Assembly: GCA_049517415.1 (NCBI GenBank)
Contig: JBEKSC010000008.1
Span: 1-64,000 of the forward strand
Direction: 5' to 3'
Source of the DNA: Candidatus Bathyarchaeia archaeon
GTDB taxonomy: Archaea; Thermoproteota; Bathyarchaeia; 40CM-2-53-6
Length of the DNA: 64,000 nt
Of this stretch, positions 18,001 to 24,000 are shown one piece after another; the stretch's first letter is position 1, and each line of letters starts with the position of its first letter. A program made the position numbers.

Positions 18001-21000
18001 TCCAAGGACCAACGCCCCTAATCTTGGTTAGCTCTGCAATCGCCGTCTCATCATCCATCCTCCTTAGACCTTCAAGGTCTAACTCCTTGCCTTCAACTTT
18101 CTTGGAAAGTTCACTTATGTACAATGCCTTATTCCTACTGAGCCCAACAGCCATCATTTGGTTCAGCTTTGCTTTCGCTAAAACCGCGGGAGTTGGAAAG
18201 GCATAGAAGCTTCTTCCCTCGAACTCCACACTCTCTCCATACTTCTCAATCAGGCGAGAGCGTACCGCTGCTGCAGCCTCGAGTGAAATCTGCTGCTCGG
18301 TAATGGCGATTACCAAGGCTTCAAAAATAGTCGGCGGTGAAACAGCTCTCAGCCCTCTGAGCTTCCATGAAACAATACTCATCAATCGGTCTTTCTTAAC
18401 AAACGAATAGAACTTGTCAAAATCAAACGAAGCTGCAAACATCGTATGCAGTAGTCTCTTCAATGCTTTAACTTCCTGAGCCAACAAACCTGGGTGAGCT
18501 TCCACGCTAAGACGTGGTTTTTCGATGGTTCCCTTGGATGTAACTAGGACAAGGACTGGATTCTCAGCAAGGTGAAGAACTCTTTTGTAAACACCGTTTT
18601 CATATACGTCTGGAAGGCTTTTCTCAAACCGACAGTGAATCCCCGCGCTTCTTTCAAAGTCGAATGGGGATTCGGGAAAAATGAAGAAACCTGTTTTGGA
18701 ACCAGTGATTCTGAGGGTCTTATCCATGAGTTGCTCGTAGCACGCTGAGAGAGTTACATGTTAAGTATTTGTGGATCTTGGCCACTTTAGTCGCACACAC
18801 TTCCTAGCGATTACGGTTCAAATTTGCCTGCTCGCACCAGCTGACCCACACACACTTTCTATGACGAACGACGACGGCGGCCTTTTGGGGTCTTTCCGAG
18901 GATCTTACAAAGTTCGACGAAACTGCTTATGGCCAATGGAATACCCACTCCGAGGTAAAGCGAAGAGAAGAATATAGATTGGTCACGTTGTGTAACTAAA
19001 TTCGTAATCTGAAAATCAACTAACACAAAACTACCAGAGGCGTAAAGTGGGCTCGCTCTACTAATATCCCACTGGTACCACAGATTTCCTCCAGAGGCGA
19101 AAATGTTGTCTTCAGTCGGCGATGATTCAATTATGGCACCAGCAGGTTGCGCCACGTCCAGAACGTAACTCTCGCTGTCAAATTGGTTGAGAGGAGTTAC
19201 AGGACCAGGTACTATGTTCTAGATTGCAGGGCCGTAGTCGAACCGGTTGGTCAACTCGTATGTGGAGTAGGAATTCCGCAAGAGTGGCGTTTTAATGATA
19301 ATTGTCGCATTGAACCAAAAGAAATCATAAGACGTGTTATGATTTATCATACGATTTGCGCGAACCCAGAAATATGATAAGCCTGTTGCTTTGTCGAATC
19401 CCGGAGAGTAAGTAAAGTTAGGATTAGGATATCTGCTACTCATGCTTGTACCGAAAGAGCTCATTGGAGTCAGCGTCTTTTGCATGCTGAAAGATACATC
19501 CCAATCCAGTATTGTCGCAGAAGAATTGTATGGAATCTCAGCTCCGAACACTATCTGGCTCGAGTTGAACTGCGTTTTGAAGGAGCACGATATGGAAAGA
19601 ACTGCAGCGTTGAGATCTGGCCTTATCCCGTAGACCATAACTGCAACTCTTGTTGAGGTGATTCCGTAATTCCCGGCCAGAGTTGGATAATGTGAGGCGA
19701 AAATAGCTAACCCGTAAGATGAGGATGCAGGCGCATTACTAGGGAAGTTGAAAACGTTCTGTAGGCCCGTGGATCCACAGAAAGCAAGTACGATACCACT
19801 AAAGAGAAAAATGAGCAGGAGATAAGGCACTCTCCGGTTGACGACTCTTCCGAAGCTATCTATGCTAACCATCTAACCGAGACCCTGTTATTAGACCTGA
19901 ATAGTCCCTATAGCCACTAATGAATCGACCAGTGTCAATAACGTACGATTTAGGCTTACACGCCTACAATCATCCCCCAGCAGGAACTGCAATCGCCAAG
20001 CTAATTCAGCATGAACCGGGGGGGAATCTCAGCGTACACATGGAAACCCTTACGTGGACTTGTGGGTCTAGTGGTGCGCGCGCACACACTTTCCAACGAC
20101 AAACGACGACGGGTCGAATTTTGCTGCTCTTACCGAAGTTTTTTATGGATTCATTACGCACCTTTAGCTGGGTTTGATGTAATGAACATGAAGTTGATGG
20201 TTCTTGTTTCTGTTGTTGCTGGTTTGGTGATTACGCTGATCACCGGGTTGGTTGATGTGACGCCTATGCACCTGGTGGGTGCAACTTGGCATGGTTGGCC
20301 GCTCCCTTGGTTCTATGTAATTGTCTACCCAGGCTCACCGATCTCGGTTAATTGGCTCAACTTAATCGGTGATATCATCGTCTGGTTTGTCATAGTCCTC
20401 GCAGTTGCCTTAGTGATTTCGAAATTCAAGAAGACGTCCAAAACTTAGGATGCATTCGAGGTAACGATCGGAATCCGCTGAGCCCATGGCACAATTCGTC
20501 CCGAGAAGGGTGAGGCTCAGAGAGGGGGGCAGGGGATTCTGACCCCAATTTAGCGGTACACATAGCCTTGCAGTGAAGCAACGGAACAATGCGAGTTCAA
20601 ATTCCGATGCTCGTACCAGAAGGCGGCCCCTCCATCTGAGGTCAGGTCGCCCACTAAAGCCACAACATCCGGTCGAATTCTATCTACCCGTTCTTCGTAT
20701 CCTTCCCATTTCACAACATCAGAGAAGGCAAGTATCTTCATCGAGCCCACTAGGTCCAACCGCCAAGCTTCGTCATGACGGGTTTGTAGATGGTGAATTG
20801 GTCTTTACAGGCGTTCTTGCGCAAATATTGAAGGGTGCTCTTTCCAATCCCAAGGCGTCTTGCCTTGGAGCCGGTCAGTGCAAGAATCCTAGCTCGCACT
20901 TCTCGGTCATCACTCCTCTGCAGCCTCGGAGCGGGTTCTGCAAAATCAAGCGTGAGTGATTTCTCGAGTAGAAATCGGCCCAGCTCGTTGGTCTTCTGCT

Positions 21001-24000
21001 CAATAACAGTATCCCATTTCAGAACTCGGTGTTTGCATGCTACGCCAGCGTTGAATCGCTCACGAATGAGATCGATGAAGCGCTGCTTCGCTTCAACCTC
21101 GAAACGGTATCGGTAATCGTCCCCTGTGAAGTAGAAGTCGGATAGGTTCAAGGCTTCAGACTGGAATGCCGCGATGACCGAAATGTCAGATAGCCACCTG
21201 AACGGCTCCTGTAAATCATACACTAAAGACTGCTTTGTCTGATAGTCGCTGACATCATGAAAGAAACCGACCGAGGGTTCCAGGCCGACCGCGTTTATTG
21301 CTCGTCGACATTCACCCTCTAGGAAACCATAACCGTAGTTTAGGGCCAAGTTCACGGGATCTGAGGCGTTGTTCTGGTGGCTTGAAGTCATTCGCTCTTG
21401 GAAATCCAAGTGCTCGGGCATCACTTTCCCGAATGCTTCCCAGTATCTCCTAGCTACACGTCCTTCGACAGTTCGTAGGTCTGGCACTGTGGAGGCTCTT
21501 CTGAGCTTTGATGCCTCAAGCTTCGTTACTTGAATCTCCCTAGGAATATCATACCGCTCGGCCAACCAATCAAGAACTTGCAGACTCCTCTCAATTTTCG
21601 CTTGAACGAGCGCTCTGGCTATGCTGAACTTCTTCTTCGGATCGTTCGCAGCTAGAATTTGTGCAGCCCGCAGATCGGCCTTAACAGGCATTGGAGGCAG
21701 AACACTAGAAATCAGACTTCCATCGAAGTTCATGATGAAGACAGGAACCTTATGCTTCGACAGCCAGTGAAACGCTTGGAGAGAAATGTACCCACTGTGC
21801 CCATCGATGATGATGGTGCCGTAAGGGAAACGTCGCGGACGAAAACGGTGCGTAGATTCTGCTCTGTCATCTTCTCGCCAGTTGATGACCTCAAGTTCAG
21901 ATCTTGACTTGAGACTGTTAACGCGGATCTTGGCGCCCCAACCGGATAGATGAAGCGGATTCAAACCTAATGCCCTCCCTGTCTACTTTCATATTCCTTG
22001 AGCTTCTGGTCGGCCAACTTGCCTGCTTCCTTCAATCGTTGTATCTCTCTTTCAGTAGGCCTTGATCTCGTCTTTGTGTTTGCACGGGCCACTATTGATT
22101 GCCAGCGTTCGTTGAGATATCCTACAGCGAAGCTTTCGCCTACAGGACTTGTAAGGAATTCAACGAATTTATCGGGATCGACTGCGAATGCCAACACTAT
22201 TAATCCGTAGTTGCTGAAGCAAGATTTCCAACCTTTTTTCAACTGTTCAGCATCGAGCCAGTTCCTTTTCGCTGAGAACATACTCTCAGCGAGGAAAGCC
22301 GTATACCGGGTTGAGGACCAGTGGGTCAATGCATACTTTAGGTACAGCGACCTTTCGTTAACCATTGTCAATCTAGAGTACGGTCTCATTGCAGTTGACT
22401 CAGGAGTCCTCATGCTATCACATGGCGATCCAATATCTTCGATGCTGAATAGCGCGTTCTTGCATCGAGTAATGAACTATCTCGCTGACTGGTCACCGTT
22501 CAAAACAAACAGTTATCCAAACGATGGTCTGAAACTGTACTCCGAGACAGGGAAAATGCTTAACGCCATTTTTGTGAGAGTTGCGGATGGCAAGACCTGG
22601 CACATTGCCTTTCATCTCAAGCCGGAAACGTCAACCGACGCGATCAAACCTGACATGGTCAAGCTACTCTCAATGCTAGCATCTTTAGGTTTGGTGAAGA
22701 ACCCTGTTGTGAGAGAACGAGTGGGTAAGAAACCTTGGATATGATATTAGTGATAGACAGACTGAACAAGTGTGAGAGACCGTTCTCCGAACGAGAATGA
22801 ACCATCTCCAATTTTCTCCTCGACACACAAAGCGACGCTGCCAGAATTAGATTCGGTCGTCCGTCTAGTGTGTGTGCGCACCATTAGACCCACACCCTTT
22901 CTAACGACGCTGGTCCAAATTACGACTCTCGCAAGCACTAGGTCCACAATGAAGGAAAACGCGATAGTTGGACAGTTGAAATCACAGATAACGCAAATGG
23001 CGACTGCCAACTCTACAGGAGGCTGATTGGAATAATTTGATTGGATTGACGAAGAGTCTTACTTCTTCGCCGATTGCTTAGCGTAGGCCGCCAAACCACC
23101 ATCCGACACGCCATAATACTTAACCATTTGACTAAGCTTTTGCCATAAAGCTTTGCCAATTCAAAGCGGTGCAGAATTTCTTGGAAAATCTAACCTTTCA
23201 CACCTCAAAGATTGATAATTTCTCAGGCTTTTCAAAACCATTAGACGAGGCGCGCTACGTGGTGGTAGGTGTCCCATACGATCACACAAGTACATATCGA
23301 GCGGGGTCACGTTTCGCCCCACGAACAATTCGCGATGCATCATTGAACATTGAGACCTATAGCCTCCGAACGGCAATCGACATCGAAAACGTTCCAATAC
23401 ACGATGCAGGAGACCTGCATATAGTCGATAATGCTTCTGAAACACTCGACAGGCTAAAAGGGGTTACAAAGGACATTCTAGCCCTTGGGAAGATGCCAGT
23501 CATCATCGGCGGAGAGCACACAATCACTCAAGCTCCAGTCCGTAGCCTTCCGCACCCTGTCGGGGTTGTTAGTTTTGATGCCCACGGCGACCTGAGGGAT
23601 GAATATGGTGGCGGAAAATTATCCCACGCCACAGTCTTGAGGCGCATTACCGAGATTGTTGGGACGGATAGCGTTTTCGTATGCGGTCTGCGAGCCCTAT
23701 GCAAAGAAGAGGTAGATTTTATTGAACTAGGGAAAGTCCAGACGATGACGCCATGGGAAATTAGGGAGAAAGGCTTAGCCAAGGCGACGGAACGCATCAA
23801 AGCCTTTGCTCAAAAGTTCAAACACACATACCTTACCATAGATACTGATGTCTTAGACCCAGCCTTTGCACCCGGGGTCGCAAACCCTGAATTCGATGGC
23901 TTAACGCCTCAGGAACTCCTGACACTAGCCACCGCTGTGGTTGACGAAAAAATGGTCGGCTTCGACCTCGTGGAGGTATGTCCAAACTATGATACCGGCG

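Follow-up and report, generated by a model that had tools for sequence, protein, structure and literature searches.

A Cas1 gene in a Bathyarchaeia genome points to a casposon-like transposon family without a polymerase gene

Why does an archaeal genome lacking CRISPR carry several copies of a gene for the integrase Cas1, and could this gene belong to a mobile element that has no polymerase of its own? The casposon superfamily, as reportedly outlined by Krupovic et al. in 2014, combines a Cas1-family integrase, an internal family-B polymerase (PolB), terminal inverted repeats (TIRs), and a target-site duplication of 14–15 bp. To our knowledge, all described casposons carry their own DNA polymerase. 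The question arises from an open reading frame (ORF) at 20750–21964 on the reverse strand of the window, a stretch of 64,000 nucleotides from a Candidatus Bathyarchaeia archaeon.

The ORF is intact, starts with TTG, and encodes 404 amino acids with a Pfam Cas_Cas1 match of 1.2e-51. A PDB sequence search returned the Methanosarcina mazei casposase 6OPM as the top match (4.8e-69, residues 37–403), compared with 4.5e-21 for the top CRISPR Cas1, 4N06. The alignment with 6OPM reaches residue 403 of 404 (chain residue 414) and covers the C-terminal helix-turn-helix (HTH) part. Judged by this homology, the protein is predicted to be a casposase with a C-terminal HTH extension, as in family 2 casposons. 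Across 134 aligned family members, the catalytic residues E167, D250, and E253 are invariant, and H236 is retained in 133. A word-index search recovered 930 homologues at E<=1e-10, the top 120 of which are 67–100% identical and mostly about 400 residues long (366–429). The initial annotation had described a large family with an intact catalytic set that resembles the M. mazei casposase far more than it does CRISPR Cas1, and each of these points is borne out.

The genome contains two full and three partial Cas1 copies (Table 1). All four previously listed paralogues were recovered, but that count fell short by one, as it missed the fragment on C37. Similarity between the copies (67–75% at the DNA level) is restricted to the Cas1 ORF, as had been proposed. 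There are no large repeats of >95% identity anywhere in the genome, that is, no recent copy.

Borders are seen in seven Cas1 units, one from this genome and six from other Bathyarchaeia, which are bounded by a perfect direct repeat of 14–15 bp and by inverted ends of varying clarity. Six units have this target-site duplication in full, the seventh lies at a contig edge, and the window copy is without one. The earlier view that no inverted repeats or target-site duplications could be defined thus holds for the window copy but not for its relatives. The repeat starts with CGCA in six of the seven units, and perfect duplications flank Cas1-bearing units in three taxonomic families. The units span 4.9–11 kb and hold 5–10 additional genes, mostly defence-like cargo, so that the former description of a ‘single-gene’ transposon had to be abandoned. 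Cas1 is the only gene common to all seven; except for one weak pair, no neighbours are shared between units, and many of the ORFs have no family assignment.

These borders differ in strength. Among 32 neighbouring junction pairs in the same orientation, six are identical at every aligned base (for one pair, cut by a contig edge, just 10 of 14 bases could be compared), against a null rate of 1.9% per pair, and five of the six enclose Cas1. A motif-blind scan of 19 loci for a 12-mer direct repeat with inverted ends placed bounded-unit pairs first in five loci and gave no convincing pair in 14. When the ends were aligned locally and compared with shuffles, only L020 stood clearly above them (score 45, shuffle maximum 15). 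L021, L030, and L046 were modestly above, and the short simple-repeat termini of this genome's own unit, L019, and L044 fell within the shuffle range. In the inner pair of L030 and in the window the sites are inverted, an arrangement that simple transposition does not produce and that counts against the transposon reading.

The nearest congener, G014 (92% DNA identity), matches the window up to 17225 and again from 23114. In G014 the flanks of the intervening island are on separate contigs; in G018 a distance of 700 kb separates them. In four public runs from peat, wetland, and soil, contigs span the two borders of the island unchanged, and the island itself is stable in 20 runs dating from 2014 to 2025. 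An empty site could be found neither in G014 and G018, where the flanks are non-adjacent, nor among the relatives of G143, which are too distant, nor on three metagenome contigs, all identical to this genome and occupied. Joints in sequencing reads, considered as an empty-site signal, were rejected as short-sided repeat artefacts.

The island holds several junction units (Table 1). Its right element end (22853–22890) belongs to the genome-wide junction family and pairs with 20061–20106 to give the inverted repeat I1/I2 (27 nt, 89%). The unit at 17664–17740 shares the 62-nt direct repeat D2 with 18813–18874 at 71% identity. The leader at 20520–20625 aligns to the leader next to the L020 element and to a third copy at C4:140896. 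It received no tRNA call from ARAGORN or Rfam, and its sole perfect 5' acceptor partner, 337 nt upstream as against 125 nt in a real tRNA-Arg control, is too far away to be plausible. When genes neighbouring Cas1 at 15 loci were compared, the 148-aa ORF upstream of Cas1 had a single relative, the ORF at the same position in L046 (phmmer E 2.7e-11). Around the window Cas1 no matching duplication was found: the top flank candidates are either inverted (20065–20078 and 22877–22890) or agree in 8–12 of 14 bases, and end similarity stays within the shuffle range (7–12, with shuffle maxima of 12–14). The window copy is an intact gene in a decayed nest of element ends, and probably not mobile as it stands.

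Table 1. Cas1 copies, bounded Cas1 units, and features of the window. Positions without a contig prefix refer to the window.
Feature	Position	Strand	Remarks
Cas1 copy, window	C8:20753-21964		full
Cas1 copy	C3:145190-146386		full, 72% aa
Cas1 fragment	C3:142358-143065		residues 164-397, 2 stops
Cas1 fragment	C9:17627-18199		residues 211-400
Cas1 fragment	C37:4667-4999		residues 291-400, 42%
Bounded unit, this genome	C3:143155-151769		8.6 kb; CGCACCACTATACC at both sides
Bounded unit L020			7.1 kb; 50-nt TIR, 92% identity
Bounded unit L030			11 kb; perfect direct repeat
Bounded unit L019			5.1 kb; perfect direct repeat
Bounded unit L021			4.9 kb; contig edge, 10/14 repeat bases visible
Bounded unit L046			9.4 kb; perfect direct repeat
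Bounded unit L044			9.0 kb; repeat starts CTCA
Variable island with Cas1 gene	17226..23113	.	synteny break
Leader-like T-arm motif, site CGCACCAGTAGACT (17684-17697), CA-type end	17664..17740	+	sequence; D2
HhH-GPD glycosylase-like ORF, 314 aa, island cargo	17783..18727	-	Pfam HhH-GPD 4.6e-16; between two junction units
CA-type end unit, site CGCACCAGCTGACC (18833-18846), second CA-type end	18792..18880	+	sequence; direct-repeat families D1-D5
217-aa ORF, island cargo	19219..19872	-	no Pfam/NCBIfam match
Inverted copy of 14-bp site (20065-20078), then CA-type end unit	20061..20136	+	sequence; inverted repeat with 22853-22894
tRNA-3'-like leader module, then degenerate 14-bp site CGTACCAGAAGGCG (20612-20625)	20520..20625	+	125 bp past Cas1 stop codon
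148-aa ORF immediately upstream of Cas1	21967..22413	-	no match in Pfam or NCBIfam
Right element end, ending GTGTGTGTG (22868-22876), then 14-bp site CGCACCATTAGACC (22877-22890)	22853..22890	+	direct sequence reading
Remnant of another CA-type end unit, second site degenerate	22891..22944	+	sequence; direct-repeat family D4
Cellular DNA polymerase B1, outside element	25807..28416	+	869 aa; 3.8 kb from Cas1

Among 301 Bathyarchaeia genomes from 108 genera, Cas1 was found in 15 genomes and 9 genera. Within the genus it occurs in 15 of 23 genomes, with 0–13 matches each, and close congeners have 0, 2, and 13. Its position differs from genome to genome, and many copies are truncated. This very patchy distribution, the shifting positions and truncations, and the perfect duplications in three families speak against a domesticated Cas1, a host protein with a non-mobile task (for instance, building or rearranging arrays of defence-gene cassettes at a leader, or DNA repair) for which the bordered units would be old relics. 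Such domestication is unlikely, although a number of observations fit it. Comparison of the window Cas1 with its paralogue and relatives indicates strong purifying selection (dN/dS 0.05–0.09, within a full range of 0.05–0.15, dS saturated), although the low ratio is counted in favour of the casposase reading as well; recent copies are lacking, the window copy has no matched flanks, and the island has been stable throughout the sampled runs. The cargo is defence-like, and junction motifs persist in congeners without any Cas1 match (32 in G013, 25 in G018, and 18 each in G016 and G007).

Around 66 element junctions are distributed across this genome, where 54 of 325 CGCACCA words are followed at a fixed distance by CACACAC, against 1.8 expected. 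The element termini consist of (CA)n, (CCG)n, or (GAC)n simple repeats. In every bounded unit a leader motif lies upstream of the repeat, which directly follows this tRNA-3'-end-like sequence. The leader has a T-loop and an acceptor-like 3' end, but no tRNA was called, and no 5' acceptor partner was found at a plausible distance. The real tRNAs of this genome are intron-rich and end in CGCACCA. Cas1 occurs in 9 of 26 genomes with at least three junctions and in 6 of 275 others, the sampled genomes being kin and not independent.

Most junction-bounded units lack Cas1. Together with the junctions in Cas1-free genomes and the many unit ORFs without a family, this would suit another mover, either a recombinase that escaped recognition or recombination between att sites resembling tRNAs, with Cas1 as a passenger. 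We regard this as very unlikely, since Cas1 is the one gene that all bounded units share, and the 14-bp length, CGCA start, and tRNA-like leader match the closest characterised casposase. Furthermore, each unit has one and the same variable 14-mer half on its two sides, and this half differs between units, so that a target duplication fits better than a fixed att core. No ORF of the seven units belongs to a PolB, integrase, or transposase family.

The elements might also be ordinary casposons whose PolB lies farther off, disappeared as the locus decayed, or comes from the gene 3.8 kb from the window Cas1. In the available portions of the original description, casposons were first defined through cas1–polB co-occurrence (PMC4046053), and the initial annotation was mistaken in stating that no family-B polymerase lies beside the Cas1 genes. 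However, the nearby gene matches 1S5J over its full length (E 2.7e-237) and NF004417 with 1110 bits, and lies beyond the island in a conserved region common to G014 and G018; by its sequence it is the host replicase PolB1. The self-synthesizing character of casposons is absent from the bounded units, with PolB in none of the seven and no ORF exceeding 615 aa. Nor does PolB occur within about 9 kb of two 40–43% identical Cas1 genes in G017 or of a 67% copy in G014. The three remaining PolB matches in this genome are best to cellular archaeal models and do not adjoin Cas1. The ordinary-casposon explanation is therefore highly improbable.

Cas2 (PF09827) and Cas4 (PF01930) have no match in the whole genome. 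A crude array finder proposed five CRISPR-array regions, but TRF on three covering stretches gave spacerless head-to-tail repeats, and the two regions examined further (on C3 and C4) fall inside long ORFs. The window Cas1 thus has neither the Cas2 partner nor the CRISPR array of an adaptation module, and the earlier assertion that the genome lacks arrays and other cas genes stands as regards Cas2, Cas4, and CRISPR-like arrays. That the gene is a remnant of a lost adaptation module is barely credible: NCBIfam does label the protein cas1 (TIGR00287, 1.6e-47), but Cas2, Cas4, and arrays are all missing, the casposase score is far above that of any CRISPR Cas1, the C-terminal HTH is present, and the gene is multicopy with truncations.

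We therefore consider it likely that the ORF is a family-2-type casposase of a Bathyarchaeia transposon family with casposon-type borders and without a polymerase gene. A polymerase-less casposon variant is well supported at the family level, and is decayed at the window locus. This reading builds on the observed protein homology, catalytic residues, borders, duplications, PolB absence, and patchy distribution; Cas1 as the maker of the insertions, and the manner of copying, we infer from sequence. The core of the earlier proposal, a casposase lineage that lacks PolB and moves or once moved, gains support from the seven polymerase-free bounded units, while mobility is still deduced and no recent copy is present.

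Under this preferred reading, the casposase would bind the inverted ends of the element, with their simple-repeat termini followed by ACG-rich motifs, and would join the two 3' ends, with a spacing of 14 bp, to a site starting CGCA(CCA), directly after the T-arm/acceptor-like ‘leader’. Gap repair by host enzymes would then create the 14-bp duplication. Because no PolB is carried, host polymerases would have to copy and repair the element, by cut-and-paste or host-dependent replication. Repeated use of the leader-proximal site could build tandem arrays. CA-type ends hold a leader-like copy of the site themselves, and elements would therefore also nest in one another's ends. The Cas1-less majority of units may be moved in trans.

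A more far-reaching idea, which we hold only tentatively, is that this is a self-sufficient, Cas1-only transposon lineage whose ends carry their own target, the leader-like motif plus CGCACCA. With every insertion a new site next to the leader would arise, and inserts, each with its 14-bp repeat, would accumulate as arrays in one place, making the family a natural intermediate between casposon and CRISPR array as well as a shuttle that puts together defence-gene islands in archaea. The reading as a ‘missing link to CRISPR’ is speculation.

Since both the definition of casposons as ‘self-synthesizing’ elements and the searches for them rely on cas1–polB co-occurrence, a widespread polymerase-less family would widen the search for Cas1 mobile elements. 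Having the borders and target rules of casposons, such a family would demonstrate that transposition driven by Cas1 needs no private polymerase. It would also make available for testing a compact archaeal integrase that is site-specific and whose ends and target can be defined, and natural tandem or nested arrays at a leader on which to test ideas of how CRISPR arrays arose from solo ends. In peat archaea, the Cas1 family seems to mobilise defence genes.

Several known systems invite comparison. CRISPR adaptation Cas1 has Cas2, an array, and a repeat of 25–50 bp, unlike the present family with its 14-bp duplication and kilobase-sized inserts; fold, catalytic motif, and staggered-cut integration beside a leader would be common to both. 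Family 2 casposons have PolB, an HNH nuclease, and two HTH proteins as conserved neighbours. The Bathyarchaeia units, in contrast, have PolB in none of seven cases, HNH in one (L030), and no shared HTH accessory genes. Their cargo is mostly defence-like, their site continues as CGCACCA, their leaders are tRNA-like fragments and not whole tRNA genes, and their ends are simple repeats where MetMaz-C1 has a 31-nt TIR.

Cas1-solo group 1 of Methanomicrobiales likewise comprises stand-alone Cas1 genes without CRISPR or PolB. According to the accessible part of PMC4046053, that group has an incomplete catalytic residue set and no horizontal transfer, whereas the window family keeps all four residues, is patchily distributed, and falls outside the group. 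AciBoo-C1 of Aciduliprofundum boonei, compared by description only, differs in having PolB and a reported 15-bp duplication, and would resemble the present family in integrating site-specifically beside the 3' end of a tRNA gene, where a leader-like segment is recognised, as far as the available text of PMC5137440, PMC6614799, and PMC9939771 describes it. The closest likeness in sequence is to the family 2 casposon MetMaz-C1, whose Cas1-type integrase (6OPM) has the same C-terminal HTH. In the excerpts available from PMC6977970, PMC4779613, and PMC10359463, the M. mazei casposon has a 14-bp duplication starting with CGCA, needs about 30 bp of upstream tRNA-Leu, and forms tandem arrays with a common duplication and solo TIRs. 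On that partial description, the Bathyarchaeia family shares the 14-bp duplication, of CGCA type in six of seven units, and duplication-sharing tandem arrays with solo ends; a target directly behind a tRNA-3'-end-type sequence and terminal inverted repeats, clear in L020, would be further points of agreement.

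The Cas1 open reading frame at 20750–21964 (−) is real: it starts with TTG, encodes 404 aa, and matches the Cas1 family profiles (Pfam Cas_Cas1, 1.2e-51; TIGR00287, 1.6e-47). As the initial annotation proposed, the protein is closer to the Methanosarcina mazei casposase than to CRISPR Cas1. In a search of all solved structures, the casposase 6OPM is matched at E = 4.8e-69, and the top-scoring CRISPR Cas1, 4N06, at 4.5e-21. The 6OPM sequence match covers residues 37–403 and reaches the C-terminal HTH. The catalytic residues are retained among the aligned members (E167, D250 and E253 in 134/134, H236 in 133/134), and a word-index search returns 930 homologues at E ≤ 1e-10, the top 120 of which are 67–100% identical. 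All four Cas1 copies that had been listed for the genome are present, and the list was incomplete, as a fifth, more distant C-terminal fragment lies on contig C37. DNA similarity between copies (67–75%) is restricted to the Cas1 ORF. Cas2 and Cas4 profiles give zero matches in the genome, and no CRISPR-like array was found: the five regions returned by a crude array finder are head-to-tail repeats without spacers. Two of these, on C3 and C4, were checked further and rejected as arrays, being coding repeats inside long ORFs.

Short BLAST matches between Cas1 loci reveal a repeated junction, in which CACACAC and ACG-rich motifs come after a 14-bp site, CGCACCA+N7. CACACAC occurs at a fixed distance after CGCACCA for 54 of the 325 words in the genome, against 1.8 expected, and there are 66 junction sites, distributed over 18 contigs. 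The sequence before the junction is either GTGTGTG, representing the inverted end of an adjacent unit, or a ‘leader’ with a T-loop/acceptor-like motif, GGTTCAAAT-N5-TGCC.

Leaders look like tRNA 3' ends, and the real tRNAs of the genome encode CCA, several ending in CGCACCA. Neither ARAGORN nor Rfam calls a tRNA at the leaders of the window, C3, C9, C37 or the compared locus L020, and a search found no 5' acceptor partner at a plausible distance; the leaders are therefore termed ‘tRNA-like’ only. Three of them have in common a ~70-nt module whose anticodon loop is Arg-UCU-like. ARAGORN finds 8 tRNA genes in a plain search and 28 with an intron search, most of the 28 being intron-bearing. Since intron-rich tRNA genes hamper calls on such leaders, their derivation from real tRNA is possible. 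Another compared locus, L030, has a string that exactly matches the 3' end of the genome’s tRNA-Arg(UCU), ~40 nt upstream of its leader; this stretch of L030, 17935–18070 (−), may be a true tRNA gene where the L030 array started. The genome also has tandem runs of two to three units of ~47–66 nt. In each unit a 14-bp CGCACCA+7 site is joined to a CA-type end that carries a leader-like motif of its own. The inner sites do not match the outer sites and thus appear to belong to the end, not to be duplications. These runs resemble solo-TIR arrays.

At L020, Cas1 lies within a unit of 7.1 kb whose inverted ends (50 nt, 92% identical) begin with (CCG)n. A perfect 14–15-bp direct repeat, which reads CGCACCAGCTGACC on the target strand, flanks this unit, and the leader motif is directly upstream of one repeat copy. 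An early model, in which CACACAC formed the sole element ends and the tRNA-like sites were flanks, was revised in view of L020, whose (CCG)n ends are inserted at a tRNA-like site. Six further units show this architecture around Cas1, each with perfect repeats; they include the unit with the second full copy of this genome and loci from two other taxonomic families (see table).

Coordinates of junctions, bounded units and other repeats or genes in the genome and at compared Cas1 loci (L-numbers)
Feature	Location	Size	Details
Window junction site	17684		
Window junction site	18833		
Window junction site	20078		inverted
Window junction site	22877		
Window junction site	20612		degenerate
Candidate left border, window copy	20626		after tRNA-like leader
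Candidate left border, window copy	20079		
Candidate left border, window copy	18847		
Bounded unit (C3a)	C3:143155–151769	8.6 kb	present genome
Bounded unit	L030	11 kb	
Bounded unit	L019, 7442–12587	5.1 kb	perfect 14-bp duplication; C-rich inverted ends; 5'-truncated Cas1 (287 aa)
Bounded unit	L021	4.9 kb	contig edge, repeat visible at 10/14 bases
Bounded unit	L046	9.4 kb	another taxonomic family; right flank plain
Bounded unit	L044	9.0 kb	third taxonomic family; (GAC)n ends; repeat begins CTCA
Tandem run	C2:870–984		
Tandem run	C39:283–347		
Tandem run	C39:4450–4514		
Tandem run	C12:2728–2782		
Tandem run	C53:1229–1276		
Tandem repeats	C4:47600–49450	87 nt × 9.7 and × 9.5	within 1066-aa T/S-rich ORF
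Tandem repeats	C3:1050–1660	33/60 nt	within 552-aa ORF
PolB1-like paralogue	C9:50930–52123 (L008 1450–3285)	611 aa	
PolB gene	C7:15875–17065		one in-frame TAG, read as two ORFs
PolB gene	C46:8478–9698		one in-frame TAG, read as two ORFs

In 6/32 neighbouring junction pairs of the same orientation, the two sites agree at every aligned base (10/14 bases for one pair at a contig edge), compared with 1.9% of random junction pairs, and five of the six identical pairs enclose Cas1. A motif-blind scan, in which any 12-mer direct repeat flanking Cas1 was scored by its inverted inner edges, places the repeat pairs of the bounded units first at 5 of 19 loci. C3a was missed because its (GT)n end lengthens the repeat, and the scan yielded no convincing pair at the other loci.

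No ORF in the seven units matches PolB, integrase or transposase families, and the longest ORF is 615 aa. The seven units have no gene in common except Cas1; three small ORFs are common to L020, L021 and L030. When neighbouring genes were compared by blastp and phmmer, the ORF upstream of the window Cas1 was weakly similar to its L046 counterpart, the only such pair. The cargo is largely defence-like (TIR domain, HNH, HEPN/AbiV, GmrSD, SIR2 with an ATPase, DUF4365 and NT5C). The L019 unit also carries AbiV-HEPN, GmrSD and RiboL-PSP-HEPN genes; either it moved in trans, or its Cas1 was truncated after insertion.

The initial annotation’s statement that no family-B polymerase lies beside Cas1 fails for the window copy, as a PolB gene is found 3.8 kb away, at 25807–28416 (+). 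This gene is the host replicase PolB1. It matches Sulfolobus PolB1 (1S5J) over its full length at E = 2.7e-237 and NF004417 at 1110 bits, its neighbours are PCNA and the primase large subunit, and the sequence there is 92% identical to that of the nearest congener. The top models for the remaining three PolB matches in the genome are cellular archaeal PolBs, and none adjoins Cas1. PolB is likewise absent within ~9 kb of the Cas1 genes of genome G017 (40–43% identity) and of the copy in the closest congener, G014 (67%). A PolB1-like paralogue on C9, 33 kb from the Cas1 fragment of that contig, matches the polymerase half of PolB1 only, without the exonuclease part, and the PolB genes on C7 and C46 are each interrupted by one in-frame TAG.

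The window copy itself has a canonical end-plus-site on its right side (22868–22890). None of its three candidate left borders has a matching duplication, the flanks agreeing at 8–12 of 14 bases or being inverted, and end similarity does not exceed that of shuffles at any of them. We read this copy as an intact gene lying among nested, decayed ends and cassettes. Homology between G014 and the window stops at 17225 and restarts at 23114, and the flanks of this island lie on separate contigs of G014, while in the congener G018 they are separated by 700 kb. For the C3 island, which holds the second full copy, 560 kb separate the flanks in G014; the leader has an orthologue there (130 bp, 87% identical), after which come 13 kb of unrelated content. 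Both islands sit exactly at synteny breaks relative to congeners, and may mark or mediate rearrangements. The possibility that the window island is an assembly artefact was rejected: in four public runs from peat, wetland and soil, contigs span both borders with no difference. At least 94% of the island’s words are present in 20 runs from 2014–2025. Around the island (12533–17222, 23169–29169) lies a replication neighbourhood with the primase large subunit, PCNA and PolB1; agmatinase/arginase and RsmB-type methyltransferase genes occur between the replication genes.

No empty site was found. The flanks of the window island are not adjacent in G014 or G018, the G014 island at the leader orthologous to that on C3 holds wholly different content, and relatives of genome G143 are too divergent. 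When metagenome contigs were scanned for exact 50-mer matches, three were returned, all identical to the genome and occupied. Joints in read contigs of the four runs have sides of only 20–25 nt and fall at repeated junctions; they were rejected as excision products and read as repeat cross-matches. Self-megablast of the genome detects no recent copies and no large near-identical repeats. Together with a low Cas1 dN/dS (0.05–0.15) at saturated dS, this indicates that the gene is under selection and that the copies are old.

Of the 301 Bathyarchaeia genomes sampled, Cas1 of this clade was found in 15 (9/108 genera); within the genus it was found in 15/23 genomes, with 0–13 matches each. By our reading, only ~6 of them have full-length close copies. 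Extra copies are mostly 5'-truncated, often with the reading frame still open. Upstream of 15 truncated copies, a junction is seen only at C3b and perhaps at L017, and no consistent pattern points to a cause of truncation. In one peat metagenome run, a 303-nt contig ~91% identical to the 3' part of Cas1 (20766–21239) has a depth of 274, against ~25 over the remainder of the island, so related C-terminal pieces are far commoner there than this genome. At least three junction motifs are present in 26/301 genomes from few lineages; Cas1 is found in 9/26 of those and 6/275 of the others. Among genomes of the genus, the number of junctions correlates with that of Cas1 matches (Spearman 0.49), a value subject to non-independence of kin and confounded by assembly quality. 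Congeners without a Cas1 match still have 18–32 junctions (G013, G018, G016, G007), which counts against strict dependence on Cas1.

The most likely explanation is site-specific transposition of these elements mediated by Cas1, in which gap filling and copying would depend on the host, Cas1-less units would be mobilised in trans, and tandem and nested arrays would grow at leaders. The element borders, the duplications and the absence of PolB are demonstrated, and from them we infer neither more nor less than a probable role of Cas1 as catalyst of the insertions and a probable mode of copying. The original casposon survey sought co-occurrence of cas1 and polB (PMC4046053), and PolB-less elements would consequently be missed. 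The literature searched, whose coverage excludes many subscription papers, contains no description of casposons without PolB or in Bathyarchaeia. As published (PMC6977970, PMC4779613, PMC10359463), family-2 casposons of M. mazei generate a 14-bp duplication whose first four bases, CGCA, overlap the end of tRNA-Leu. They need ~30 bp of upstream tRNA sequence, form tandem integrations with one common duplication, leave solo TIRs adjoining CGCA, and retain one copy of the site upon excision. The Bathyarchaeia elements appear to obey the same rules but differ in content, as the seven units have no PolB.
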